Shown here: positions 5,395 through 47,696 of the stretch, one piece after another
Layout of the letters: the number at the start of each line of letters is the position of its first letter
Numbering within the stretch: position 1 is the stretch's first letter
Assembly (NCBI GenBank): GCA_016432345.1
Contig: CP066685.1
Span: 695,740-759,739 of the forward strand
Source: Candidatus Levyibacteriota bacterium
Lineage (GTDB): Bacteria > Patescibacteriota > Microgenomatia > Levybacterales > UBA12049
Direction of reading: 5' to 3'
DNA length: 64,000 nt
Translations under genes and position numbers: made by a program
Notes under the pieces: generated by a model
What the model was told of the DNA's origin: nothing
Databases searched by the model: none
Seen by the model: the letters and a program-made list of their open reading frames with translations, nothing else

Positions 5395-6438
5395 ATGAAT
5401 AATTTTTTTCGAAATAAAATACTTATTGTTGTACTTCTCCTAATTAACGCTACTCTTATTGTATTTCTTCCAAAGAATAAATCAATAAGTACTCCTTTAA
5501 ACAAAAACACAATAAACCCGCAAACCAAACAAAACCTTAACCCTTTGTCAATTGAAGCCATGCGCGAGAAAACATATCCAGGCAGCGATATTATAATCGA
5601 ACAAACTCTACCTTCTACCAGTAATTACAATCAGTATCTTACTTCCTACCAATCGGACGGTCTAAAAATCTACGCTCTGTTAACTGTTCCTATTGGCCAA
5701 AAACCCAAAAATGGTTGGCCGGTGATTGTTTTTAATCATGGCTATATTCCGCCCGAAGTTTACCGGACAACCGAAAGGTATGTTGCTTACATTGATGCTT
5801 TTGCCAGAAACGGCTATATAGTTTTTAAACCAGATTACAGAGGAAATGGTAATTCCCAAGGAAAACCCGAAGGCGCATATTACTCTGCGGCTTACGCAAC
5901 CGATGATTTAAATGCAATTTCCTCAATTAAAAAATATAAAGACGCAAACCCCCAAAGAATTGGCGTTTGGGGCCACTCAATGGGCGGCAATATTACCCTT
6001 CGGGATTTGGTTGTAAACACAAAAGATATAAAAGCGGCTGTAATTTGGGGTGGGGTTGTTGGCTCGTACGAAGACTTAATGTATAACTGGCAACGAAAAG
6101 TAACTTATCGTCCATCAGGAAGAGAACTAACACTTCGAAATTCATCCAGACAACAATTAATAGACAAATATGGGGACCCAAGAAAAAACCCGCAGTTTTG
6201 GAACTCGCTTGACCCTACCTACTTTGTAAAAGATATTACAGCGCCCATTCAATTGGACACAGGCGGCAGCGACGAAGAAGTACCGGTGGCTTTTTCTAAG
6301 TCTCTAAAAGACAAATTGCAAACGGCTGGAAAAACCGTTGAATATTTCGAATATCCAGGAGATGACCACAACATTTCTCAAAATTTTACCCCTGCCATGC
6401 AAAATTCAGTTAAATTTTTCGATAAATACCTAAAATAG
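5395..6438 (+). CDS. Membrane-anchored alpha/beta hydrolase (S9 peptidase / dienelactone hydrolase-like)
   Basis: N-terminal TM helix, linker, then a hydrolase fold with the GHSMGG nucleophile elbow. Confidence 0.7.
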   Translation: MNNFFRNKILIVVLLLINATLIVFLPKNKSISTPLNKNTINPQTKQNLNPLSIEAMREKTYPGSDIIIEQTLPSTSNYNQYLTSYQSDGLKIYALLTVPIGQKPKNGWPVIVFNHGYIPPEVYRTTERYVAYIDAFARNGYIVFKPDYRGNGNSQGKPEGAYYSAAYATDDLNAISSIKKYKDANPQRIGVWGHSMGGNITLRDLVVNTKDIKAAVIWGGVVGSYEDLMYNWQRKVTYRPSGRELTLRNSSRQQLIDKYGDPRKNPQFWNSLDPTYFVKDITAPIQLDTGGSDEEVPVAFSKSLKDKLQTAGKTVEYFEYPGDDHNISQNFTPAMQNSVKFFDKYLK

Positions 6439-6711: not shown

Positions 6712-7533
6712 ATGCGCAGAAACGATATACTGAAAGCAAATAAAAAATGGTGGAATGATGTTACCCCAATTCACGCAAAATCCAAACTCTATAATCTCGC
6801 CTCTTTTAAAAAAGGAAAAACCAGTTTAGAAAAAACAGAAATTACAGAATTGGGCAATAACGTTCGTGGAAAAACCTTATTACATCCCATGTGCCACTTT
6901 GGTATGGACACATTATCGTGGGCCAGAAAAGGCGCAATAACAACAGGTGTTGATTTATCAGATAAAGCAATTGAATTCGCAAAAGAATTAAGTAAAGAAA
7001 CCCATATTCCATCAACCTTTATATGTTCGGATTTTAATAAATTGCCAAAAGCACTCAACAAAAAATTTGATATTATTTTTATGTCTTATGGCGTACTTTG
7101 CTGGATAACAGACATTAATAAATGGGCAAAAATAATAAGTCATTTTTTAAAAAAAGGTGGCACTTTTTATATTATCGAACTTCATCCATTTACCAACATA
7201 TTAAGTTATGATTTTAAGATATCCTACAACTATTTTGATAAAGGCCCAGACATTGATGATTCAGAAGGCACCTATGCAGATTGGAATGCGCCGATAAAAA
7301 GCCCGACATATGTCTGGAGCTATACCATAAGTAATGTTATAAACGCGCTAACCCAACAAGGATTAAAAATAGAATATGTCCATGAATTTCCTTTTACCAT
7401 GTACGATCAGTTTCCCGGATTTATGAAGATAAACGAAAAAAACCAATATGTCTTAAAAAATAAAAAAATTCAAATACCTCTCTTGTTTTCCATAAAAGCT
7501 ACCAAACAAAACTTTAATACTGCCAAGTATTGA
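6712..7533 (+). CDS. Class I SAM-dependent methyltransferase
   Basis: LLHPMCHFGMDT (motif I-like), GVDLSDKAIEFAKE (motif post-I), FDIIFMSYGVL (motif II). Confidence 0.6.
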   Translation: MRRNDILKANKKWWNDVTPIHAKSKLYNLASFKKGKTSLEKTEITELGNNVRGKTLLHPMCHFGMDTLSWARKGAITTGVDLSDKAIEFAKELSKETHIPSTFICSDFNKLPKALNKKFDIIFMSYGVLCWITDINKWAKIISHFLKKGGTFYIIELHPFTNILSYDFKISYNYFDKGPDIDDSEGTYADWNAPIKSPTYVWSYTISNVINALTQQGLKIEYVHEFPFTMYDQFPGFMKINEKNQYVLKNKKIQIPLLFSIKATKQNFNTAKY

Positions 7534-15946: not shown

Positions 15947-16993
15947 ATGAAAATAAATTTTGGCGGTGTCATCGAAGACGTGGTCACCCGAAAAGAATTT
16001 CCATTGACAAAAGCAAAGCAAGTGCTTAAAGACGAGGTAATTGCAGTAATTGGTTATGGCGTGCAAGGACCAGCCCAGGCATTAAACTTGCGGGATAACG
16101 GCTTTAGTGTGATTGTGGGACAACGAAAAGGTGGTCAGTCATTTGAAAAAGCCCAAAAAGACGGCTGGAAAGAGGGAAAAAACCTTTTCGATATAGAAGA
16201 AGCGGCAAAACGGGGAACCATTATTTGTTACCTTCTTTCCGATGCCGGGCAAATTCAATCCTGGCCGATTATTAAAAAACATCTAACACCTGGCAAAGCC
16301 TTATATTTTTCTCACGGCTTTGGTATAACTTACAAAAAACATACCAAGATTGTACCGCCAAAAAATGTTGATGTTATTTTGGTGGCCCCCAAAGGCTCGG
16401 GACGCACTGTCCGCAAACTCTTTACCGAAGGTAAAGGCATTAACAGCAGTTTTGCCATTTTCCAGGACGCCACAAAAAAAGCAAAAGAACGAATACTTGC
16501 AATAGGCATAGCCATAGGATCGGGTTATTTATTTGAAACAACGTTTGAAAAAGAGGTTTTTAGCGACCTAACAGGAGAAAGAGGCGTTTTAATGGGCGCC
16601 ATTGCCGGGGTTATGGAAGCGCAGTATAATTTGCTTCGCAAAAAGGGGCACACGCCATCGGAAGCATTTAACGAAACGGTCGAAGAAGCCACCCAAAGTC
16701 TTATTCCTTTAATTTCCGAAAACGGCATGGACTGGATGTTTGCCAATTGTTCAACCACGGCACAGCGCGGAGCGCTAGATTGGAAAGGAAAATTTAGAAA
16801 AGCTGTCGAACCGATATTTAATGATTTATACAAAAAAGTAAAATCAGGTTACGAAGCGCAGGTTACCATTAAAGCAAATAGCAAGAAAAATTATAAAGTT
16901 GGTTTGCAAAAAGAATTAGACACCATCAAAAATTCCGAAATGTGGAAAACAGGAACCACCGTCCGCTCCCTTCGCCCCGAACGACAAAAGTAA
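15947..16993 (+). CDS. ilvC: Ketol-acid reductoisomerase
   Basis: Rossmann motif GYGVQGPAQALNLRDNG; class I KARI length (348 aa). Confidence 0.9.
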   Translation: MKINFGGVIEDVVTRKEFPLTKAKQVLKDEVIAVIGYGVQGPAQALNLRDNGFSVIVGQRKGGQSFEKAQKDGWKEGKNLFDIEEAAKRGTIICYLLSDAGQIQSWPIIKKHLTPGKALYFSHGFGITYKKHTKIVPPKNVDVILVAPKGSGRTVRKLFTEGKGINSSFAIFQDATKKAKERILAIGIAIGSGYLFETTFEKEVFSDLTGERGVLMGAIAGVMEAQYNLLRKKGHTPSEAFNETVEEATQSLIPLISENGMDWMFANCSTTAQRGALDWKGKFRKAVEPIFNDLYKKVKSGYEAQVTIKANSKKNYKVGLQKELDTIKNSEMWKTGTTVRSLRPERQK

Positions 16994-29694: not shown

Positions 29695-30125
29695 AAATTT
29701 TAGTTCTTAACGGGCCAAATCTTAATATCTTGGGAAAACGAAAAAAAGAGTTTTATGGAATATCTACACTTGATAATATCAATATCATTCTAAAAGACGC
29801 TGCAAAAAAATATGACTGCCAACTTTTATTTTTTCAATCAAATCATGAAGGAAGACTTATTGATTTTATTCAAAAACACGCAAAAAGCGCAGATGGCATA
29901 CTGATAAATCCTGGAGCGCTGACTCATTATGGGTATTCACTTCACGATGCACTAGTTGATACAAAATTACCAATTGTCGAAGTGCACCTTTCTGACATCA
30001 CAAAACGGGAAGACTTTAGAAAAATAGATGTATTTGATGGAATTGTAATTGAAAGAGTAATGGGAAAAAAAGAAAAAAGTTACGAAGAAGGACTGGAAAA
30101 ACTAATTAAACATATTAAAAAATGA
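29691..30125 (+). CDS. aroQ: 3-dehydroquinate dehydratase, type II
   Basis: ILVLNGPNLNxLGxR...HEGxLID type II DHQase signature; 144 aa. Confidence 0.85.
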   Translation: MKILVLNGPNLNILGKRKKEFYGISTLDNINIILKDAAKKYDCQLLFFQSNHEGRLIDFIQKHAKSADGILINPGALTHYGYSLHDALVDTKLPIVEVHLSDITKREDFRKIDVFDGIVIERVMGKKEKSYEEGLEKLIKHIKK

Positions 30126-31279
30126 ATATTAAGATCTATCCATCTAAAATATCAGGAGTCATAAATGCGCCGCCATCCAAAAGTATAACACACCGAGCTA
30201 TTATTGCCGCTGCTTTAGCGCATGGAACCTCTGTAATAAAAAACGTGCTTTTTTCCGATGACACAAAATACACAATTCATGCGCTACAACAACTAGGTGT
30301 AGAAATAGAACAAAACAAAACAACACTAACTATTTATGGAACTGGTGGAAAACTTATTGCTCCCAAAAAACCGCTATATGTAGGCAACTCCGGGTCAACA
30401 CTTCGCATGATCACTGCTATTGCGTCATTAGCAAAAGGTGAAACAATAATTACAGGAGAAAAACGACTGCAAAAACGCCCCATCCAAGATCTTCTTGACG
30501 CGTTAAAACAAATCAATACAAGTATAATTACAATTGATGGATCGAAAAGCTCACAGTATATTACCGCACTGCTGCTTATTGCTCCATTTGCAAAAAACAC
30601 TTTGGAAATTATTATTAAAGGGGATCTTCGTTCAAAACCATATGTTCTATTAACTCTTGATGTAATGAAATCATTCGGCGTTTCTTTCCACCTTAGAGGT
30701 GGAAACCTATTGACACCTTTGGAAAAAAACCAAAAATATAAAGGTAGAAAATATACGGTTGAAGGAGATTTTTCCTCTGCGGCATACTTTTTTGCAGCGG
30801 CCGCAATAACAAAAGGCAAAATAACAGTAAAAAATCTTAATAAGAATTCTGCGCAGGGAGACAAGAATTTTCTTAACCTCCTGCAAAAAATAGGAAGCAC
30901 TGTTGATATGAATGATTATCCTGATATTGTTCAAACACTGGCTGTTGTTGCTGCCTTTACCAAAGGAAAAACCACTATTACAAATATAAATCATTTAAAA
31001 GACAAAGAAACAAATCGTATTTCTGCGACTGCAAAGGAGCTTAGGAAAATGGGAATTGCAGTAAAAGCAACAAATGACAAACTCATTATACAGGGGGGAA
31101 TACCAAAAGGAGCAGTAATTAACACATATAACGATCACAGAATGGCCATGAGTTTTGCTGTTGCTGGTCTTGCCGCAATGGGTGAAACGATTATTCAAAA
31201 TGCAGAAGTAGTTAACAAATCGTATCCCAATTTTTGGAAAGATTTGCAAAATCTTGGAGCAAAAATAGAAGTTATATGA
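30122..31279 (+). CDS. aroA: 3-phosphoshikimate 1-carboxyvinyltransferase (EPSP synthase)
   Basis: PPSKSITHRAIIAAALA N-terminal motif, VEGDFSSAAYFFAAAAI; 385 aa. Confidence 0.85.
   Translation: MNIKIYPSKISGVINAPPSKSITHRAIIAAALAHGTSVIKNVLFSDDTKYTIHALQQLGVEIEQNKTTLTIYGTGGKLIAPKKPLYVGNSGSTLRMITAIASLAKGETIITGEKRLQKRPIQDLLDALKQINTSIITIDGSKSSQYITALLLIAPFAKNTLEIIIKGDLRSKPYVLLTLDVMKSFGVSFHLRGGNLLTPLEKNQKYKGRKYTVEGDFSSAAYFFAAAAITKGKITVKNLNKNSAQGDKNFLNLLQKIGSTVDMNDYPDIVQTLAVVAAFTKGKTTITNINHLKDKETNRISATAKELRKMGIAVKATNDKLIIQGGIPKGAVINTYNDHRMAMSFAVAGLAAMGETIIQNAEVVNKSYPNFWKDLQNLGAKIEVI
30684..30722 (+). repeat. REP-like hairpin copy inside the aroA coding sequence (TTCCACCTTAGAGGTGGAA plus CTATTGACACCTT)
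   Basis: A 37-39-nt near-identical match to the left flank of the Y1 transposase gene at 39614-39653; encodes FHLRGGNLLTPLE in frame. Confidence 0.7.
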
Positions 31280-31779
31280 ACATTGTTTTAATTGGTATGA
31301 GGGGAGCTGGTAAAACAACTGTGGCAAAACTGTTGTCTAAAAAACTGCAAAAAGAAGTTTTGGAAACAGATGACTTTATTGCAAAAAAGGCAGGTATGAC
31401 TATTGCCGAAATTGTTTTAATGAAGGGTTGGGATTATTTTCGCGATGTTGAAACGGAAGTAATTGCCGATATTTCAAAAAAAGATAATGTAATTATTTCC
31501 TGCGGCGGGGGCGTTGTAATAAGACCAAAAAATATAGATTTGTTAAAACAAAATGGGAAAATTTTTTGGCTGCAAGTTAGTGTTGCAACGCTTCTTAACA
31601 GAATCGGACACGACCAAAACCGACCATCACTCACTGGTAAGCCGCAAAAAGAGGATATGGAAGAAACGCTAAAAAAACGATATACACTATATAAAAACGC
31701 AAGCAATGTTAGTATTGATACAGAAAAACTAACTAAAAAAGAAGTGGCGCAAAAAATAATTGATTCATTATGGAAATAA
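31276..31779 (+). CDS. aroK: Shikimate kinase
   Basis: IVLIGMRGAGKTT P-loop; 167 aa; start chosen at the ATG overlapping the aroA stop (ATGA). Confidence 0.85.
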   Translation: MNIVLIGMRGAGKTTVAKLLSKKLQKEVLETDDFIAKKAGMTIAEIVLMKGWDYFRDVETEVIADISKKDNVIISCGGGVVIRPKNIDLLKQNGKIFWLQVSVATLLNRIGHDQNRPSLTGKPQKEDMEETLKKRYTLYKNASNVSIDTEKLTKKEVAQKIIDSLWK

Positions 31780-32546
31780 ATTCACAAACACAACTTTGCT
31801 GCATTATCGGTAATCCAGTAGAACATTCTCTTTCGCCAACAATTCATAATGCAGCTTATGATAATTTAGGACTAAATTTTGTTTACCTGTCATTTCGGGT
31901 AACTGATGTAAAAAATGCCATTGCGGGAATTAGAGCCCTCGGAATAAAAGGAATAAGTATTACAATTCCTCATAAAATCACTGTTATGCCGCTACTTGAT
32001 GAAATTGATAAATCAGCAAAAGAAATTGGCGCAGTGAATACTATTATAAACAACAACGGAAAACTAAAAGGTTTTAATACCGATTATAAAGGCGCCATAC
32101 GAGCTCTTGAAGAAAAAACAACGCTTACCGGAAAACACGTTGTATTACTCGGTAAAGGTGGAGCAGGAAAAGCAATTGCCTTTGGGCTTAAAGAAAAAAA
32201 TGCATCAGTCTTTATCGTTAACAGAGCAATAGAAAAGACAAAAGTTTTAGCAGAAATTAAGAAAGCAGATATACTAATCAATGCCACGCCTATTGGCATG
32301 CATCCAAAAACAGAAGAATCGTTAATACCCAAAAAATATCTTCATAAAAACCTGATTGTTTTCGATATTGTCTATAACCCAAAAGAAACAAAATTACTAA
32401 AATATGCAAAAGAAGCTGGATGTGCAATTGTCTATGGTTATAAAATGCTCTTATACCAGGCAGTATCGCAGTTTGAGCTTTTTACCAATCACAAAGCGCC
32501 AGTTGCTATAATGGAGGAGGCTTTATTATTATGCTTAAATTCTTAA
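31770..32546 (+). CDS. aroE: Shikimate dehydrogenase
   Basis: GNPVEHSLSPTIHNAAY substrate-binding motif; GKGGAGKA Rossmann motif. Confidence 0.85.
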   Translation: MEINSQTQLCCIIGNPVEHSLSPTIHNAAYDNLGLNFVYLSFRVTDVKNAIAGIRALGIKGISITIPHKITVMPLLDEIDKSAKEIGAVNTIINNNGKLKGFNTDYKGAIRALEEKTTLTGKHVVLLGKGGAGKAIAFGLKEKNASVFIVNRAIEKTKVLAEIKKADILINATPIGMHPKTEESLIPKKYLHKNLIVFDIVYNPKETKLLKYAKEAGCAIVYGYKMLLYQAVSQFELFTNHKAPVAIMEEALLLCLNS

Positions 32547-36527: not shown

Positions 36528-37565
36528 ATGGAAGAGCAACTAATCGATATTAAAAATGCCGCGCTTTCTTTAATTCTTGATGCAAAAGATAAGGCAGAAC
36601 TCGAGGAAATAAAATTACAATTTTTAGGAAGAAACGGCACATTTACTTTAATATTAAAAGACCTTCCAAAAATCCCAAAAGAAAAAAGGCCTGCCGTTGG
36701 ACAACTAGCTAATAGTGTCAAAATAACGATCTCTGACGCAATTGATAGACAAAACTTAAAACTAAAAACCGAAAAACCAAAACAGCAAAAAGATGTTCTT
36801 GATGTTACCATGCCTGGCCACAAACCGCCGCTTGGACACCATCATCTTATTACCCAAGCAATTTCAGAGATTACTGCTATATTTGAAAAAATTGGTTTTA
36901 CCCGCGTCAAATACCCAGAGGTCGAATGGGATTGGTACGCCTTTGAAGGATTGAATTTTCCTAAAGATCACCCAGCCCGAGACGACTGGGAAACATTTTT
37001 TATCAAACAAAAACCAGATCCTAAAAAAGGCCCGGTTATTTTAACCCCTCATACTTCTTCCGGGCAGATTAGAGAAATGGAACGGGTAAAAACTCCTCCA
37101 ATTAGAATGCTTAACATCGCCAAATGCTACCGAAGACAATCTGACGTTTCTCATTCACCAATGTTTCACCAATTTGAAGGATTAGTAGTAGACAAAAATA
37201 TTTCAATCACACATCTAAAAGGAACGCTTGATTATTTTGTTAAATCATACTTTGGCGCCAACAGAAAATCTCGAATTAGACCATACCATTTTCAGTTTAC
37301 CGAACCGTCATTTGAAGTTGATGTTTCCTGTGGCATTTGTCTTGGCCGAGGATGTAAACTTTGTAAAGCAGGATGGTTGGAAATGGGAGGAGCAGGCATG
37401 GTCCATCCAAATGTTCTAAAATTTGGGGGAATTAATTCTAAAGAGTACTCTGGATTTGCTTTTGGTTGGGGAGTCGAACGAGTGTTGATGATGAAAGAAG
37501 GAATAGAGATAGACGATCTGCGATTATTATATTCCAATAATTTAGATTTCTTAGAGCAATTCTAG
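36528..37565 (+). CDS. pheS: Phenylalanine--tRNA ligase alpha subunit
   Basis: Class II motifs (FPKDHPARD, CYRRQSDVSHSPMFHQFEGL, GWLEMGGAGMVHP); 345 aa. Confidence 0.9.
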   Translation: MEEQLIDIKNAALSLILDAKDKAELEEIKLQFLGRNGTFTLILKDLPKIPKEKRPAVGQLANSVKITISDAIDRQNLKLKTEKPKQQKDVLDVTMPGHKPPLGHHHLITQAISEITAIFEKIGFTRVKYPEVEWDWYAFEGLNFPKDHPARDDWETFFIKQKPDPKKGPVILTPHTSSGQIREMERVKTPPIRMLNIAKCYRRQSDVSHSPMFHQFEGLVVDKNISITHLKGTLDYFVKSYFGANRKSRIRPYHFQFTEPSFEVDVSCGICLGRGCKLCKAGWLEMGGAGMVHPNVLKFGGINSKEYSGFAFGWGVERVLMMKEGIEIDDLRLLYSNNLDFLEQF

Positions 37566-37647
37566 TATCAGCGTATAGTTAATAGCGTCTAGCGTATAGT
37601 TTTAGATTTAACTAAACGCTAATTTCTAAACGCTATACGCTAAATAT
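37566..37647 (+). repeat. Imperfect palindromic repeat element of the AGCGTATAG / CTAAACGCT family filling the pheS-pheT spacer
   Basis: CAGCGTATAGTT, TAGCGTCTAGCGTATAGTT ... CTAAACGCTATACGCTA: inverted arms able to form a long hairpin; shares motifs with 48901-48977 and 49946-49976. Confidence 0.7.
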
Positions 37648-39609
37648 ATGAATATAAAAATTTTAGACAGTTGGCTTCGTCAACACATAAAAACAAAAGC
37701 CACGCCGGAAAAAATTGCCGAAATTTTATCTCTTACTTCTGTATCTGTTGAAAGAATTGAAAAAATCGACAATGATTTTATCTATGATATCGAAGTAACA
37801 ACAAACAGGCCAGACATTATGTCTGTTATTGGGCTGGCACGAGAAACTGCAGCAGCCTTAAAACAGTCCGGAATCGATGCAACATATATTCCTTATCTAC
37901 CAAAAGGGCTCGAAAAAGTAAAAAGTAATACCAAAGTTATTATTAAAAATGATGCAAGACTGGTAAATAGAATTTGTGCTGTTGTAATGGATGTGAACAT
38001 AAAACCAACTCCGGATATTATTACAAAAAGAATCGAAGCATCAGGCATTCGATCACTCAATAATCTTATTGATATAACAAATTATGTCATGCTGGAAATT
38101 GGTCATCCAACCCATGTCTTTGATTACGATAGATTACTAGAATCTACCCTTATCATTCGAGAGTCTAAAAAAGGAGAAAAAGTTACTACCCTTGATAACA
38201 AAACGCATACACTTCTAGGCGGAGATATTGTGGCAGATAACGGAAAAGGAGAAATTATAGATTTGCTGGGGATTATGGGCACAAAAAACAGTGTGGTAAC
38301 CAACAATACAAAAAGAATACTCTTCTTTATCGACAACAACGATCCTGTTCGCATTAGAAAAACATCTATGTCTTTAGGCATTCGAACAGATGCTGCTGTA
38401 ATAAACGAAAAAAATATCGATCCAACACTTGCTATGACTTCGCTGCTTGCCGGAATCGAGTTATACAAGGAATCGACAGATGGAAAAATGCTCTCCAACA
38501 TCATAGATATCTACCCAAATAAAGTAAAACCAAAAATAGTATCTGTAACACTCAAAAAAATTCAAACCCTTTTGGGCATCAACATAAACCTATCAACTGT
38601 TATACAAATCCTTAAAAGCCTAGAATTTGAAGTAGTAAGTAAAAAAAACGACCAATTGGTAGTTTCTGTACCCAGTTTTAGGACAAACGACGTTACGATA
38701 GAAGAGGATATTTGTGAAGAAGTCGCCCGCCTTTACGGGTACCATAACTTGCCGACTTTGCTTCCTCCACTTTCAAGTATCCAACATTACTCTGTTGAAA
38801 AAAACAGTTTTTATTGGGAGGAACGAATTAAAAATATCCTTAAGTACTGGGGATTTACCGAAATGTATACATATTCGTTGGTTTCAGAAGACTTGTTTGA
38901 TGGACCGGTAGAAAATGCAGTCAAGCTATCAAACCCATTAACAGAAGATATGTTATATCTACGAAAAACACTAATTCCCAGTCTTTTGCAGACGGTAAGA
39001 GAAAATAAAAACCGAGAGTCTATGATGATTTTTGAAATTGCCAATATTTACGAAAAAACAGATGACAAACATCTTCCTAACGAAATCCCAATGCTGGCCG
39101 GCATTGTAAAAAAACAAGATGTAACATTTTTCGACGTCAAGGGAATACTGGAACAGCTTTTTGCCGATGTAGGAATATCAAATATCCAATTCAAAAAAAA
39201 TAAAGAGGGGATAGAAAAAATACATATCCACTGCAATAACTCTGTTATTGGAGAAGTTGAAATCCTGGAAGAAACTTTAATTAACTTTGAAATAAATTTT
39301 GTAAAGTTATTGTCTTTCGTAAACAACAAAAAAGTCTATACCCCAATTGGCAAATATCCGCCAATTATTGAGGACATCGCTTTTATTTTTGAAAAACCAA
39401 TTACAGTTGGAGATGTTATTTCAGAAATAAAAAGCCAAGATCCTCTTATTAAAGAAGTTTCCCTATTAGATGCTTATGAGCATACAAAAACATTTCATAT
39501 TATTTACCAACATAGAGAAAAAAATCTTACTTCAGAGGATGTTGCACCCATCCGGGAAAAAATCCTCAAAGCAATTAAAGAAACCTTCTGTGCAAAAATA
39601 AAAGAATAA
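37648..39609 (+). CDS. pheT: Phenylalanine--tRNA ligase beta subunit, short form (653 aa; apparently lacking the N-terminal EMAP-type tRNA-binding domain)
   Basis: B3/4 and B5 region motifs (DIEVTTNRPDIMSVIGLARE); length about 150 aa less than typical bacterial PheT. Confidence 0.8.
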   Translation: MNIKILDSWLRQHIKTKATPEKIAEILSLTSVSVERIEKIDNDFIYDIEVTTNRPDIMSVIGLARETAAALKQSGIDATYIPYLPKGLEKVKSNTKVIIKNDARLVNRICAVVMDVNIKPTPDIITKRIEASGIRSLNNLIDITNYVMLEIGHPTHVFDYDRLLESTLIIRESKKGEKVTTLDNKTHTLLGGDIVADNGKGEIIDLLGIMGTKNSVVTNNTKRILFFIDNNDPVRIRKTSMSLGIRTDAAVINEKNIDPTLAMTSLLAGIELYKESTDGKMLSNIIDIYPNKVKPKIVSVTLKKIQTLLGININLSTVIQILKSLEFEVVSKKNDQLVVSVPSFRTNDVTIEEDICEEVARLYGYHNLPTLLPPLSSIQHYSVEKNSFYWEERIKNILKYWGFTEMYTYSLVSEDLFDGPVENAVKLSNPLTEDMLYLRKTLIPSLLQTVRENKNRESMMIFEIANIYEKTDDKHLPNEIPMLAGIVKKQDVTFFDVKGILEQLFADVGISNIQFKKNKEGIEKIHIHCNNSVIGEVEILEETLINFEINFVKLLSFVNNKKVYTPIGKYPPIIEDIAFIFEKPITVGDVISEIKSQDPLIKEVSLLDAYEHTKTFHIIYQHREKNLTSEDVAPIREKILKAIKETFCAKIKE

Positions 39610-39613
39610 ACTA

Positions 39614-39653
39614 CTTTTCCACCTTAGAGGTGGAATGCTATTGACACCTTGGG
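39614..39653 (+). repeat. Left REP-like hairpin of the Y1-transposase unit (TTCCACC-TTAGA-GGTGGAA plus downstream CTATTGACACCTT)
   Basis: Perfect 7-bp stem hairpin; its exact reverse complement occurs at 40378-40396. Confidence 0.7.
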
Positions 39654-40353
39654 TATTTTCGTTTACTCTAGCAATATGCCGGGAAGAAAAACGCCACTGG
39701 TAAATAACGAAATATACCACATCTTTAATAGAGGTGTCGCATCGCAACCAACATTTCTCAATAAAAGAGACTATGACAGAGCTTTAGAAACAATTTTCTA
39801 CTATCAAAATAGCATTCCTCCAATAAAATACTCTCGTTTCCTATCTTTATCTACAGAAGATAGAACTGAGTTATTCGAAAATTTAGCAAAACAGAAAAAT
39901 TTTCTAGTAGAAATCATTTCGTACTGCCTTATGCCTAATCACTTTCATTTTCTGTTGAGACAAATAAAAGATGGTGGTATTGCAAAGTTTATAAGTAACT
40001 TTACAAATAGTTATACCCGCTTTTTCAATACAAAACGAGAAAGAACAGGGCCGCTTTTTACAGGAAAGTTTAAATCTGTAAGGATTGAAACACAAGAACA
40101 ACTTCTCCACGTTTCAAGATATATCCATTTGAATCCATATACTTCTTTTGTTGCAAAAACACTTAAAGACCTTGAAACTTATCCCTATTCTTCTTTTCCA
40201 GAATTCATTAACAAAGTAAAATCAAATTTTTGTACTAAGGACATTGTTTTAGCTAACTACAAAAATATAGAATCTTATAAACAATTCGTTTTTGACCAAG
40301 CAGACTACCAACGATCATTAGGTCTAATAAAACATCTAACCACAGAGAATTAG
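39649..40353 (+). mobile_element. HUH-Y1 transposase of the IS200 / REP-associated tyrosine transposase (RAYT) type
   Basis: YHIFNRG N-terminal motif, HUH motif MPNHFHFLL, catalytic-Tyr helix VSRYIHLNPY (YIxxNP signature); flanked by inverted REP-like hairpins. Confidence 0.7.
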
Positions 40354-40377
40354 GTATTACCAGAGGTGGCGTATCTG

Positions 40378-40396
40378 TTCCACCTCTAAGGTGGAA
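40378..40396 (+). repeat. Right REP-like hairpin (TTCCACC-TCTAA-GGTGGAA), the exact inverse of the left one
   Basis: Reverse complement of 39617-39635; 22 nt beyond the convergent PBP1A stop. Confidence 0.7.
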
Positions 40397-40418
40397 AATG
40401 ATAACAGGAGAAACTTAG

Positions 40419-42776
40419 TCAAAGTGTTGACGTCGGTGTTGGAATAGAGGTATTGGTTGGCGTTGGAGTAGGAGTATCTGAAACAACCCGCGTTGATTTT
40501 TCGGTTGGAGGGTGATAAAAAGGATCATCTTTATAATGCTCGTTTATCCATTCATTAATACCATCTTGCCATCTGTTTTTTCCATCACCCGAAAATGGAT
40601 CTTCTTCCGCAAAATTAATAAATTTTTTGGTATCGTACTCGTTATGCGCAATTTCTGAATCGCTGGCAAGCTTATTATTATCTGCTTTGGAAACTTTAAA
40701 CTCCTTATATATTGCTGACGGTCCTTGCGGCTGTGTCCCTTTAATATAATATTCTGCTCTGGTTTTTTGTCCGTCCACTGGTAACCCTCCGCCCAAACTA
40801 TCTATAGTTACTGCTGTTACATTATCTGGTTTATTAAATTCTTCATTTGGTTTATTTTTTAGCGCTTCTAAAATAATTCTCCTCCAAATTGGCGCGGCGC
40901 CTGTTACGCCTGACGCCACATTCCCCATTGGACTGTTGTCGTTATTCCCAACCCAAGTCGCCACCAAAATACTTGGCGTCCATCCAATTGTCCAGTTATC
41001 TCTTTTATCATCAGTTGTTCCTGTTTTTACAGCAATTTCTCGTCCAGTAATATTTAAATAACTGTTTTCTCCAAAAGTAATCAGTCTGGCATTATTATCA
41101 AATAATATATGAGAAACAATAAACGCCACCTCGGAACTTAATACTCTTTTTGGCGATGCTTCCTTATTTTCGTACAAAACTTTTCCTTTTCTATCGGTTA
41201 CTTTAAGAATCGCAATCGGTTCAACATGATACCCGCCATTGGCAAACGCGCTGTATGCCGATGCCAATTCCATCATGTGTACCTCGCCGCCGCCAAGTGT
41301 TATAGACAAACCAAAATGTTTCACATTATCATCTGATGGTTCAAAAGTGGAAATACCCATACTATATGCGGTTGTTAACATATTTTTTACACCAACTTGC
41401 GCTAGCATCTTTACAGCCGGAATATTAAGCGAGGATCCAAGCGCAAAACGCATCTGTACCGGCCCATGAAATTTACCATCGTAATTCTTTGGCTCGTAAT
41501 CTTTTCCTCCCTGATTTGGAAATACTGTTTTTGTATCCATAAGAAGTGTCGATGCGCTAAAACCTTTTAAAAGCGCGGTGGCGTATGTTACAGGTTTTAT
41601 AGAAGAACCTGGTTGTCTTAATGCTTGAGTTACCACATTAAATTGTCCATCAAAAGACACTCTTTTTAAAGTTCCCGACTCTGTGGCAAAGAAATCTTTA
41701 CTCCCCACCATTGCTAAAATTTCTCCATTCTTAGGATTTATCACAATGCTTGCTCCGTTACCAACCTTAAGAGAAGCCGCAGCATCAACTTCTTCTTTTA
41801 CAATCTCTTCTGCTTTTTGTTGTAGTTTATAATCAATGGTTGTTGTTACCTGTAAACCCCCTTGTTCAACCATATTTTCTCCAAATTTTTTAATAAGTAG
41901 ATCTTTTACATAAAAAGAAAAATGCGGCGCTTTTATAGATTGACTTTTAGATAAAAATTCAACTTTGTCTAAAGATTTTACCGCTTCTTTTTCTTGTTTT
42001 TCTGTAATATAGCCATCCTCCTGCATTCGCCGCAAGACGTCTTTTGTACGATTAATATATGCTTTTTTATTTAACCCATAAGGAGAATAATAAGAAGGAA
42101 GCTGGGGAAACCCAGCTAAAATTGCCGATTCTGCAAGAGTTAAATCTTTGGCTTTTTTGCCAAAATACCCCTCACTTGCCGCCTCAACACCAACCATAGT
42201 TCCTCCATATGGCGCGATATTAAGATAAAGTTCCAGAATCTGATCTTTTTTATACTTTTTATCTACTTGAATTGCTAAAATAAGCTCTTTTATTTTTCGA
42301 GGCAAAGAACGCTCTGATGTTAAAAGCGTATTTTTTACCAACTGCTGCGTCAGTGTTGATCCTCCGGTAACGCGGCGAAATAAAAGCGCATCACGAAAAA
42401 CCCGCAAGTATGCCATGGGAGAAAATCCTTGATTTGTGTAAAAATCTTTGTCTTCAATGGCAATTGTTGCGAGTTTTATACTTTTAGGAATATCTTTTAA
42501 TTCCACATACGTTCTATTTTGATCTTCAAAAATATCGTATAGTAAAACCTCATTTCTGTCGAAAATCTTTGTTGATTGCGACAAGTTGCTGGCTGACAAC
42601 TTGCCAGGAGTTGGCAAATCGCGGCCATACCAGAAAAAAAGCGCTATCACAAATAAAACAAGTCCAATTGTCCCAAAAAAAACCAGTTTCACCAAACCGC
42701 TAATTAACAAAAGGTTTTTAGATCTATAAACTCGATCGCGTCTTCGACTTCTAAATCCTAACATGATTATACGCAT
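40419..42776 (-). CDS. Class A penicillin-binding protein (PBP1A; glycosyltransferase plus transpeptidase) with a Thr/Pro-rich C-terminal tail
   Basis: N-terminal TM anchor; GT51 motifs (EDKDFYTNQGFS, RKIKELILA); transpeptidase SxxK/SxN/KTG (STLK, SLN, KTGTT); C-terminus TPTPTPTNTSIPTPTSTL. Confidence 0.85.
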   Translation of the reverse strand: MRIIMLGFRSRRRDRVYRSKNLLLISGLVKLVFFGTIGLVLFVIALFFWYGRDLPTPGKLSASNLSQSTKIFDRNEVLLYDIFEDQNRTYVELKDIPKSIKLATIAIEDKDFYTNQGFSPMAYLRVFRDALLFRRVTGGSTLTQQLVKNTLLTSERSLPRKIKELILAIQVDKKYKKDQILELYLNIAPYGGTMVGVEAASEGYFGKKAKDLTLAESAILAGFPQLPSYYSPYGLNKKAYINRTKDVLRRMQEDGYITEKQEKEAVKSLDKVEFLSKSQSIKAPHFSFYVKDLLIKKFGENMVEQGGLQVTTTIDYKLQQKAEEIVKEEVDAAASLKVGNGASIVINPKNGEILAMVGSKDFFATESGTLKRVSFDGQFNVVTQALRQPGSSIKPVTYATALLKGFSASTLLMDTKTVFPNQGGKDYEPKNYDGKFHGPVQMRFALGSSLNIPAVKMLAQVGVKNMLTTAYSMGISTFEPSDDNVKHFGLSITLGGGEVHMMELASAYSAFANGGYHVEPIAILKVTDRKGKVLYENKEASPKRVLSSEVAFIVSHILFDNNARLITFGENSYLNITGREIAVKTGTTDDKRDNWTIGWTPSILVATWVGNNDNSPMGNVASGVTGAAPIWRRIILEALKNKPNEEFNKPDNVTAVTIDSLGGGLPVDGQKTRAEYYIKGTQPQGPSAIYKEFKVSKADNNKLASDSEIAHNEYDTKKFINFAEEDPFSGDGKNRWQDGINEWINEHYKDDPFYHPPTEKSTRVVSDTPTPTPTNTSIPTPTSTL

Positions 42777-45634: not shown

Positions 45635-47653
45635 ATGAATCTTAAAACGCCAATTGCCAATGCGGATAGACCGTATAAAATGTATGCCTCGCGCCTGGAA
45701 AAGCTGGGCATAATAAAACTAGAAGATTTCTTATATCATGTTCCGTCCCGCTACGAAGACTATTCTATTATTTCTTCTATACGACATTTGCAAGCTGGAG
45801 AAATTGTTACTATTCAAGGAACTGTTGCTGCAATAGAAAACGAGTACGCTAAAAACTATAAAAAATTACAAAAAGCAACAATAGAAGATAACAGCGGAAC
45901 AATAGATGTTGTTTGGTTTAATCAACAATACATTACTAAAATTATCAAAAAAGGGACAAAAGTTTCTTTGTCGGGCAAAGTTGATTGGTTCTCCCGTAAA
46001 TTAACTATTGCTTCGCCAGAATACGAAATTATGTACGATAATTCAGAACCAATTCATACTGGCAGAATTGTGCCGATTTATCCAGAAACAAGAGGTGTTT
46101 CTTCCAAGTGGCTGCGCCGCCAAGTATATAAAATTCTACAAGAACAAAATGTACTCGAGTACATTCCTGATTCAATTATTATAAATAATTCTCTTACCAA
46201 CATTACAGATGCAATACAACAAATACATTTTCCCAAAAATATAGAAAATGCAAAAAGAGCCAAAGACCGTTTGGCATTTGACGAACTCTTTTTGCTGCAG
46301 CTTGCATCTTTACAAAGAAGAAACGCTTGGGAAAAACAACTTGTTGGACATCCGTTTTCTATTTCCACATTTCAAAAACAAATAGGGGAGTTTTGGAAAA
46401 GACTGCCATTTACACTAACTGACGCCCAAAAAAGAGCAGTCAAAGATATTTTTGCCGACCTTGCTTCAAAAAAACCAATGAACAGACTACTAGAGGGAGA
46501 CGTAGGAAGCGGAAAGACAGTTGTTTCTGCAATTGCTATGTATGTTGCATATCTTAATGGCTTTCAATCAGTTCTTATGGCGCCAACAGAGATACTCGCA
46601 CAACAACATTTGGCAACGATCTCTAATCTTTTATCTTCATTGGGAGTCAAGGTTGACCTCGTAACAAGCAGCAAAAAGCCGCGAGCCACACGCGCATTTG
46701 ATATTCTTGTTGGCACTCATGCTATTCTTTCGGATAAGATTAATTTAGATAAATTAGGTCTGGTGGTGATTGACGAACAACAGCGGTTTGGTGTTGAGCA
46801 ACGAAGCATTATTCGGCAAAAAGGCAAAAACCCGCATGTCTTAACAATGACAGCAACTCCAATCCCGCGAACTGTGGCATTAACACTCTATGGAGATTTA
46901 GATTTATCTTATCTTGACGAAATGCCAAAAGGCAGACAAAAAATAAAAACCTGGCTTGTCCCTCCACAAAAACGAGAAAACGCTTACAAATGGATAAATA
47001 AGCAAATTCAAGAAAATAGGGATCAAGTTTTTATTATTTGTCCATTTATTGAACAGTCGGAAAGCATGCAAACCGTTAAAGCAGCGGCAATTGAATTTGA
47101 GCGCCTGCAAAAAGAAGTTTTCCCAAACTTAAAAATTGGCTTGCTTCATGGCAAACTAAAATCCAAAGAAAAAGACGAAGTGCTGCGGCAATTTAAAGAG
47201 AAAAAATTTGATATACTCGTTGCTACACCAGTAGTTGAAGTAGGTATAGATATCCAAAACGCCACCATTATGCTTATTGAAGCATCCGAACGTTTTGGAC
47301 TAGCACAGCTTCATCAACTGCGAGGTCGGGTAGGCAGGGGAGACAAACAATCATATTGTTTACTATTTACAGAATCAAAAAGCCCACAAACTCTGGAAAG
47401 ACTAAAAGCCTTAGAAACCATGCATGTCGGAGCAGAACTTGCAGAACTGGACTTACGCCTTCGCGGGCCTGGAGAAATGTATGGCACCATGCAGCACGGC
47501 GCAAAACAACTTAAAGTTGCTTCATTTTCTGATTTTCCACTGATCGAAAAAACAAGAAGAGCGACAGAAAGTATTTTTCCAAAACTTTCTCAATATCCAA
47601 ATCTGCAAGAAAAATTACATAGTATAATTATTCAAGAAGTCTCTCCAGATTAA
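45635..47653 (+). CDS. recG: ATP-dependent DNA helicase RecG
   Basis: Wedge/OB N-terminal region; SF2 helicase motifs (LLEGDVGSGKT, DEQQRFGV, TATPIPRT, QLRGRVGRG); 672 aa. Confidence 0.9.
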   Translation: MNLKTPIANADRPYKMYASRLEKLGIIKLEDFLYHVPSRYEDYSIISSIRHLQAGEIVTIQGTVAAIENEYAKNYKKLQKATIEDNSGTIDVVWFNQQYITKIIKKGTKVSLSGKVDWFSRKLTIASPEYEIMYDNSEPIHTGRIVPIYPETRGVSSKWLRRQVYKILQEQNVLEYIPDSIIINNSLTNITDAIQQIHFPKNIENAKRAKDRLAFDELFLLQLASLQRRNAWEKQLVGHPFSISTFQKQIGEFWKRLPFTLTDAQKRAVKDIFADLASKKPMNRLLEGDVGSGKTVVSAIAMYVAYLNGFQSVLMAPTEILAQQHLATISNLLSSLGVKVDLVTSSKKPRATRAFDILVGTHAILSDKINLDKLGLVVIDEQQRFGVEQRSIIRQKGKNPHVLTMTATPIPRTVALTLYGDLDLSYLDEMPKGRQKIKTWLVPPQKRENAYKWINKQIQENRDQVFIICPFIEQSESMQTVKAAAIEFERLQKEVFPNLKIGLLHGKLKSKEKDEVLRQFKEKKFDILVATPVVEVGIDIQNATIMLIEASERFGLAQLHQLRGRVGRGDKQSYCLLFTESKSPQTLERLKALETMHVGAELAELDLRLRGPGEMYGTMQHGAKQLKVASFSDFPLIEKTRRATESIFPKLSQYPNLQEKLHSIIIQEVSPD

Positions 47654-47696
47654 AATAACCTTGCGGTTAAAGAAAAAACAAGATATAATACAACGT

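Follow-up and report, generated by a model that had tools for sequence, protein, structure and literature searches.

Systems that pair repetitive extragenic palindromes (REPs) with REP-associated tyrosine transposases (RAYTs) have been studied almost entirely in proteobacteria. Their enzymes, TnpAREP in the broad sense, make up class 2 of the TnpAY1 proteins and are defined by a Y---NP motif in place of the Y---Q found in the TnpA of the insertion sequence (IS) IS200 (PMC6006769). The largest branch of RAYTs goes under several names, being subclass 2.1 of Quentin et al. (2018, PMC6006769), Group 1 of Bertels et al. (2017, PMC5581495) and, mostly, the TIRYTs of the TIRtrons of Di Nocera et al. 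(2013, PMC3733652); it is characterised by the motifs NH[YF]H, W[EQ]/FQ, Y[IV]HLNP and a proximal SS, has a median length of 238 aa, and is described as devoid of REP-like hairpin repeats beside its genes (PMC6006769). The E. coli enzyme belongs to Group 2, or subclass 2.2 (structure 4ER8), and TnpAREP cleaves and joins single-stranded REP DNA in vitro (PMC8266576). In this report we analyse a locus in a 64,000-nt stretch of the genome of a Candidatus Levyibacteriota bacterium (the window, by which we mean this full stretch, and to which coordinates refer unless a locus with an L number is named). The locus comprises a gene for a Y1 HUH endonuclease or transposase of the RAYT/TnpAREP class and, on either side of it, a hairpin-bearing repeat. 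We consider it probable that this is a system of the REPtron/TIRtron type, in which a single-copy, vertically inherited Y1 HUH enzyme lies between two inverted cognate elements of about 41 nt, a reading that draws on what was observed of its anatomy and of the conservation and covariation of its parts, on counts of copies, on synteny and purifying selection, and on differences between relatives in the presence or absence of elements. The host is one of the Patescibacteria; the words 'Microgenomates', 'Parcubacteria' and 'Patescibacteria' do not occur in PMC6006769, and an earlier description of such a system in this group was not found in the literature searched, which does not prove that none exists.

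The protein had been described, on a sequence-only reading of the same DNA, as the product of a single HUH open reading frame (ORF) of 234 aa, longer than the TnpA of IS200. The ORF is indeed single, but a frame of that length begins at a TTG codon; since all homologues begin with MPGR, we place the start at the ATG at 39676, giving 225 aa as compared with about 150 aa for IS200 TnpA. The HUH motif and the YIxxNP tyrosine helix, both correctly recognised, are present as H89-F-H91 in PNHFHFLL and as a presumed catalytic Y149 in RYIHLNP, with SS at 172-173, and H89, H91, Y149, N153 and P154 are either invariant or conserved to at least 90% in alignments of 24 and of 101 sequences, such that the class 2 signature is present in the form YIHLNP. 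The Pfam profile Y1_Tnp (PF01797) is recovered with 38.1 bits, above its cutoff of 23 (E 1.9e-9), and the top NCBIfam match is NF047646, REP_Tyr_transpos (E 1.1e-11). A profile of 101 family sequences matches TnpAREP 4ER8 at E 4.7e-6, in an alignment that takes in the HUH motif, the WQ region, the catalytic tyrosine (Y149 with the Tyr of the YIYINP motif of 4ER8) and the tail, and matches ISDra2 TnpA only at E 3e-3; of the PDB searches made, this alone was informative, a single sequence having given only noise and a 24-sequence profile weak matches. Likewise, a first AlphaFold2 model from 24 close homologues (pLDDT 58, weak fold matches) was superseded by one from 101 sequences (pLDDT 95.6), whose best PDB match in a fold search is again 4er8_A (E 8e-7, TM 0.68), followed by the TnpAs of ISDra2, IS608 and IS200, the top of the list consisting exclusively of Y1 transposases. 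By profile and by fold, the protein is closer to E. coli TnpAREP, its best match among solved structures, than to TnpA of the IS200 type.

This structural proximity to the E. coli enzyme is accompanied by differences. The protein is 60 aa longer, with a helical C-terminal tail of about 50 aa past the region matching TnpAREP (helix 189-223 in the model). For the helix-turn-helix-like domain that TIRYTs have distally in their C-terminus (Bac_DnaA_C, HTH_23 or HTH_28), a search with the full protein, the tail not having been searched alone, gave no Pfam match at E up to 1. On motifs only, the protein would fit subclass 2.1, Group 1 or the TIRYTs rather than the E. coli type: NHFH, YIHLNP and SS are all present, the FQ seen in most homologues is FT here, and the length of 225 aa compares with the median of 238 aa. 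The protein belongs to a large family, with 418 clusters at 50% identity (E below 1e-30), and dN/dS relative to the orthologue in L023 is 0.06.

The flanking repeats first noticed were TTCCACC-TTAGA-GGTGGAA (39617-39635) and, at 40378-40396, its reverse complement. Both are found exactly there, within a perfect inverted repeat of 21 nt each (39615-39635 / 40378-40398), and the 19-mer, for which 0.01 sites would be expected by chance in the window, is observed at three. When all exact copies of the 19-mer from public genomes are aligned, together with the flanks of homologous genes retrieved by their protein sequence, the repeat unit proves to be about 41 nt and hence longer than the hairpin alone (Table 1). 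It has three parts, an 8-bp stem with a 3-nt loop (TTCCACCT-NNN-AGGTGGAA), an 8-nt spacer and a direct copy of the 5' arm, the consensus of the latter being (C/A)CACCTYNGGTA. The upstream (type A) and downstream (type B) elements are identical at 31 of 41 positions on comparison by hand, and type B begins 4 nt past the stop codon of the Y1 gene. Since the arm copy is located between hairpin and gene on both sides, and so points towards the gene, it is the whole elements that are inverted. The loop was tried as a marker of inverted versus direct orientation and rejected: TAG/CTA in the window, it has the opposite orientation at one of the two ends in relatives both close and distant (L003, L005, L018, L027, L074-L077), while the arm copy always faces the gene, and of the single-sided copies, read from hairpin to arm copy, 53 show TTAGA and 15 TCTAA. 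Single-sided units account for 75 of 130 hairpins, and a further 14 have an arm copy on both sides, forming a palindromic unit of about 60 nt.

Table 1. Positions in the window of the gene, its flanking elements, the candidate promoter, the solo element and sites that are element-free here and occupied in a relative
Feature	Position	Strand	Remarks
Y1 HUH endonuclease/transposase gene, RAYT/TnpAREP class	39676..40353	+	evidence: profile, motif, fold, dN/dS
Upstream type A element	39615..39655	+	hairpin TTTTCCACCT-TAG-AGGTGGAA at 39615-39635
Type A spacer	39636-39643	+	TGCTATTG; upstream element
Type A copy of 5' arm	39644-39655	+	ACACCTTGGGTA; upstream element
Downstream type B element	40358..40398	-	TTTTCCACCT-TAG-AGGTGGAA, spacer CAGATACG, arm copy CCACCTCTGGTA
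-35 box TTGACA	39641-39646	+	within the upstream element, in the type A spacer region
-10-like hexamer TACTCT	39664..39669	+	gap of 17 nt from the -35 box and of 6 nt to the ATG; 3/6 match
Solo type A copy in aroA (30122-31279)	30685..30722	+	TTTCCACCTTAGAGGTGGAA-ACCTATTG-ACACCTTTGG, in frame, encodes SFHLRGGNLLTPLE
Element-free site	16993/16994		past the stop of ORF 15947-16993; indel of ~49 nt in relative CAZIZQ01 (L034 at 5916)
Element-free site	47659-47681		just past ORF 45635-47653; L001 carries an element at 313
Element-free site	31741-31781		aroK/aroE junction; L063 carries an element at 5846

The coupling of hairpin and gene is most clearly seen in 80 homologous loci that were picked by similarity of the protein alone (51-76% identity) and not of the DNA. 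In most of them one hairpin precedes the ATG by 59-66 nt and a second follows the stop codon at a distance of 20-60 nt, and in most the arm copy faces the gene on both sides. Stems (CCACCT, ACACCT, CAACCT, GTTCCG) and loops (CTA, CCG, CGT, GGG) vary by lineage, the two copies at a locus sharing one variant and the arm copy tracking the stem. Among 63 distinct upstream elements the hairpin is 91% paired, with compensatory changes at 7 of 8 pairs, a level reached by none of 500 shuffles. Pairing between the 3' arm and the arm copy amounts in the same set to 96.8%, with at least one double change at 4 of 5 pairs, a signal that is smaller (9 cells) and derives from sequences related to each other. 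The exact 19-mer is found in metagenome-assembled genomes (MAGs) named Levy-, Gottesman-, Shapiro-, Beckwith- and Blackburnbacteria, although the enzymes there share only 55-64% identity, and the upstream element is identical over 43 nt to that of L023, the synonymous sites of the adjacent gene having a pS of 0.60. The MAG JACPGP01 also contains a second Y1 gene (L026 3648-4313), a paralogue of 52% identity. The hairpin that accompanies it, TTCCGAT-CCCGT-ATCGGAA, is one of its own, with spacer and arm copy arranged as in the other elements; this is the pattern of 'one enzyme, one repeat family' described for RAYTs (PMC6006769).

Copies of the element are also dispersed away from the gene. The window contains one gene, two flanking elements and one solo element in its 64 kb, and a generic search for hairpin plus arm copy, directed at diverged extra copies, returned only these three and nothing in ten shuffles. 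The solo copy had been placed at 30684 on the sequence-only reading; it exists, at 30686-30704, and is not extragenic, because it lies within the reading frame of aroA. The description of the hairpins as REP-like is supported, with the qualifications that they lack the canonical GT[AG]G tag and are not strictly extragenic. The aroA element is shared with CAZIZQ01 (L055, aroA 81% identical at the amino acid level) and absent from JACPGP01 (L063, 74%), in which the usual EVKNKDFKKFIVK is found instead; the net difference being +3 nt, the element has taken the place, in frame, of a segment similar in length. Across 24 Patescibacteria MAGs the exact 19-mer occurs 84 times, and thus far beyond the three sites of the window, the closest relatives having 15 copies in CAZIZQ01, 11 in JACOXO01, 10 in CAYZZG01 and 8 in JACPGP01; about a fifth of 87 exact copies are situated well inside long ORFs. 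Three sites are element-free in the window and occupied in a relative (Table 1), and from such differences in presence and absence at orthologous sites the short elements appear to have moved. At one of them, the aroK/aroE junction of JACPGP01, a stop-to-stop frame of 401 codons (L063 5322-6525) runs through the element, which may link both genes in frame.

Intragenic copies have precedents. Intragenic REPs are known exceptions to the extragenic rule, and are discussed together with the palindromic elements of Rickettsia (PMC3733652), and REPs inside tnpAREP genes have been reported for subclass 2.4 (PMC6006769). A comparable case is found here in a Beckwithbacteria-like clade (~55% identity), whose Y1 gene itself harbours the cognate hairpin in frame, translated there as KLSTSKVES and having a stem of 11 bp; the loci concerned are L021 (868-1530), L053, L125-L127 and L131-L133 (gene offset 530), and their upstream copy is at -38..-42, without the TTGACA-bearing spacer. 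Both this gene and aroA resemble the Rickettsia examples in that in-frame palindromes leave genes intact, and differ from them in the length of the element (~40 nt as against 100-150 nt) and in that the two worked examples replace a stretch of similar length rather than purely adding to it. A further group of hairpins has no arm copy (ACT-hairpin-AGT type; L014 at 2517, L016 at 5245, L020 at 7524, L054 at 6421) and falls, in several MAGs, near residues 132-139 of ORFs that measure about 235-266 aa; these may represent a conserved in-frame copy within one gene family, and L014 and L016 share flanking sequence. Finally, at 14 of 184 distinct elements, compared with 1 in a control region, the outer flank and the 5' hairpin arm are duplicated in tandem outside the element (L023 ~7220-7262; also L018, L028, L056, L076, L087, L090, L119, L120 and L122), as if copying had stuttered at the hairpin.

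As had been noticed, the Y1 gene stands between convergent pheT (TIGR00472, 448.7 bits, cutoff 402.65) and a gene of the PBP1A family (TIGR02074, 514.8 bits, cutoff 508.75), the right hairpin ending at 40396, 22 nt from the PBP1A stop codon at 40419. The further suggestion that it was inserted there is unsupported, because no empty pheT/PBP1A junction is found in relatives and the gene occupies the same position in both syntenic ones. These are the Levybacteria MAGs CAZIZQ01 (L001/L027) and JACPGP01 (L023/L050), in which the order pheS-pheT-gene-PBP1A-tyrS-purH is kept and in which the Y1 gene is 84-87% and PBP1A 84-86% identical to their counterparts in the window. There is one Y1 gene in the window and one of this type per MAG among 73 hairpin-bearing genome loci, and multiple identical copies were not encountered. 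By these counts the gene appears to be single-copy, and among close relatives it is vertically inherited and, in this sense, 'domesticated'. A scan of viral contigs with the 19-mer gave 0 matches, and so nothing indicates a phage vehicle.

Two side observations concern these relatives. In JACPGP01 pheS and pheT (L023 4184-7097, compared with window 36528-39609) are only 45% and 39% identical to those of the window, while the Y1 gene, PBP1A and purH beside them are 74-87% identical, which suggests a replacement of pheST in one lineage. The records of CAZIZQ01, CAYZZG01, CAZYIC01 and CAZDQA01 (L001, L002, L004, L007 and others) are titled 'uncultured Gammaproteobacteria' or 'uncultured Pseudomonadales'; genes on them are 80-93% identical to the Levybacteria window, and the organism names look wrong.

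The upstream element may in addition carry the promoter of the gene. Among 69 distinct upstream regions TTGAC[AG] occurs 30-45 nt before the ATG in 52, and in 46 of these a -10-like hexamer (at least 4/6 matches) follows 16-18 nt downstream, as compared with 9 of 52 after shuffling; the commonest gap between this hexamer and the ATG in homologues is 6 nt. In the window the -10 is weak, being clearer in homologues, and a generic promoter scan did not call it. The arrangement predicts a promoter embedded in the element and a leaderless or near-leaderless mRNA. Since the -35 box is located between the 3' arm of the hairpin and the arm copy, binding of the enzyme or formation of the hairpin would be expected to affect transcription. 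The hairpins were also considered as terminators and rejected in that role, as a terminator scan gave 0 sites and the hairpin has no run of T after it on either strand; a search of Rfam returned no match at E up to 1.

How, then, does the locus compare with the systems already described? With the REPtron of E. coli it shares a gene that is vertically inherited and, to judge by the loci counted, single, lying between inverted copies of a hairpin repeat of which related MAGs contain further, scattered copies. It differs in having no GTAG at the hairpin foot and no conservation of the residues that contact GTAG, in the perfect, bulge-free stem with its third arm, and in copy number, there being tens of copies per genome here and hundreds there. 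The likeness to TIRYT loci lies in the long, partly self-complementary inverted repeats flanking the gene, in a dispersed repeat family, moderately abundant, whose units are single or paired, and in the low copy number of the gene; the differences are that a hairpin forms the conserved core of the repeat, contrary to what is described for subclass 2.1, and that the GGGGWSAS motif of the terminal inverted repeats is absent. As with the REPINs of P. fluorescens (Bertels & Rainey 2011, PMC3116915), short non-autonomous repeats are tied to one RAYT, and the double-sided units resemble the REP doublet; in contrast to REPINs, most copies are single-sided, and their sequence is common to several candidate phyla rather than species-specific. 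We conclude that the locus is probably a variant of an already known type of system, a REPtron or TIRtron by its arrangement and, so far as activity can be inferred from its relatives, by its working.

On this basis a mechanism can be proposed. For the TnpAs of IS608 and ISDra2 a hairpin serves as binding site, and a short stretch of base-pairing beside it determines where the cut is made. By analogy, the Y1 enzyme would bind the hairpin once it has folded in single-stranded DNA, for which the replication fork is the most plausible place, would cut beside it by means of Tyr149, with a metal ion held by His89 and His91, and would then rejoin the strands, with the consequence that the short elements, and not the gene, would be copied or moved. 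The arm copy could pair with the 3' arm of the hairpin and would then act as the determinant of the cleavage site or as a guide, the part played by GTAG in canonical REPs; we regard it as the best candidate for a specificity determinant because GTAG is lacking at the hairpin foot, because the GTAG-contacting residues are not conserved and because the arm copy co-varies with the stem. Binding of the enzyme, or extrusion of the hairpin, at the upstream element would presumably feed back on expression of the gene.

Several observations weigh against the reading of the locus as a REPtron/TIRtron-type system. The score of 44.8 bits against NF047646 is below the RayT equivalog cutoff of 80 bits, and the residues of TnpAREP that contact GTAG (W94, E100, H101 and R104; PMC6006769) are not conserved in the profile alignment. 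GT[AG]G was found 0-2 nt from the hairpin foot on none of 260 strands examined, GTAG occurring 3 nt away on 12 of them. The copy number is moderate, with only one solo element in 64 kb of this genome, and the differences in presence and absence could also be explained by deletion. None of the 80 metagenome loci has pheT, PBP1A, tyrS or purH as neighbours, and the synteny is for that reason one of close relatives only; as neighbours differ in distant lineages, the cassette as a whole may, over the long term, have moved now and then or been passed on horizontally. Lastly, catalysis, single-strand binding, mobilisation by this protein and autoregulation are features that we infer by analogy.

Of the competing explanations, the one that fares best, improbable as we think it, assigns the pair a function for the host: the enzyme's task would be to nick these hairpins, or resolve them, where DNA is single-stranded, as at stalled forks, in the service of genome structuring or of the processing of transcript ends, while the repeats would spread by slippage or gene conversion and mobility would be incidental. 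The very strong selection on the gene and its vertical inheritance are what such a function would lead one to expect, the persistence of an identical 19-mer across five candidate groups with divergent enzymes is unlike the species-specific REPs of proteobacteria, and the partial tandem duplications and flipped loops indicate processes linked to replication. Yet new copies at non-orthologous sites, some of them intragenic, require a copying mechanism, for which this enzyme is the only dedicated candidate nearby, and its closest solved relative is TnpAREP, with its cleaving and joining activity on REP DNA in vitro (PMC8266576).

There is a smaller chance still that the whole unit of 0.78 kb, hairpin-gene-hairpin, transposes as an autonomous IS200-like element, solo hairpins being left-over ends or derivatives of the type of miniature inverted-repeat transposable elements. 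The HUH/Y1 (Y1_Tnp) fold is common to both, as is the logic of the substrate, subterminal hairpins being recognised on single-stranded DNA in the IS200/IS605 family also. IS200/IS605 elements end asymmetrically, in a left-end and a right-end hairpin that are recognised on one strand, whereas both ends of the present unit are inverted copies of one element. Nor would such an element be expected to have a single-copy gene at the same chromosomal position in two relatives, with a housekeeping-like divergence and the low dN/dS of 0.06, a Y---NP in place of the Y---Q motif in a protein of 225 rather than about 150 aa, no tnpB, 8-15 solo elements to each gene, and no trace of the 19-mer in the viral scan. 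These points outweigh the compactness of a unit bounded by inverted repeats, the differing neighbours in distant lineages and the description of Group 1 as the most IS-like group of RAYTs (PMC5581495), and the preference for a REP/RAYT-type organisation over an autonomous IS on the sequence-only reading is borne out by the recovery of Y1_Tnp, by the many further hairpin sites and by the finding of one gene in the window and one per MAG among the loci examined.

That the hairpins are ordinary regulatory signals, serving as promoter or operator of the gene and as terminators of pheT and PBP1A, with the other sites forming a shared regulon, is hardly credible: a -35 box does lie inside the upstream element with a conserved -10 after it, and elements do occur directly past stop codons, but there is no T-run on either strand, no terminator site and no Rfam match, the downstream copy has no -35 box, copies lie within reading frames, presence and absence vary among related genomes, and a pure DNA-binding regulator would have no need of the catalytic HUH and Tyr residues that are kept.

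Preferring, therefore, the REPtron/TIRtron-type system, we may ask how far it extends. Patescibacteria, with their tiny genomes, would have a REP/RAYT system in a version of their own. A large family in this group, represented by the present locus and more than 60 related ones, is consistently paired with a hairpin repeat, and this repeat is distinguished by compensatory covariation, by a lineage-specific 'code' and by an embedded, predicted promoter. A bolder view, which we offer tentatively and think rather doubtful, is that of an ancient, lineage-wide partnership of Y1 enzyme and hairpin in Microgenomates, with essentially one hairpin constant across several candidate phyla, a three-part code replacing GTAG, portable promoters in type A elements and in-frame replacements in essential genes, which together would make it a domesticated genome-shaping system and not a selfish remnant. 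The family provides a natural set of co-varying pairs of enzyme and substrate with regard to how Y1 enzymes without GTAG choose their DNA, examples of short mobile DNA tolerated in frame within core genes, and a marker of genome dynamics in organisms that have very small genomes and few mobile elements.

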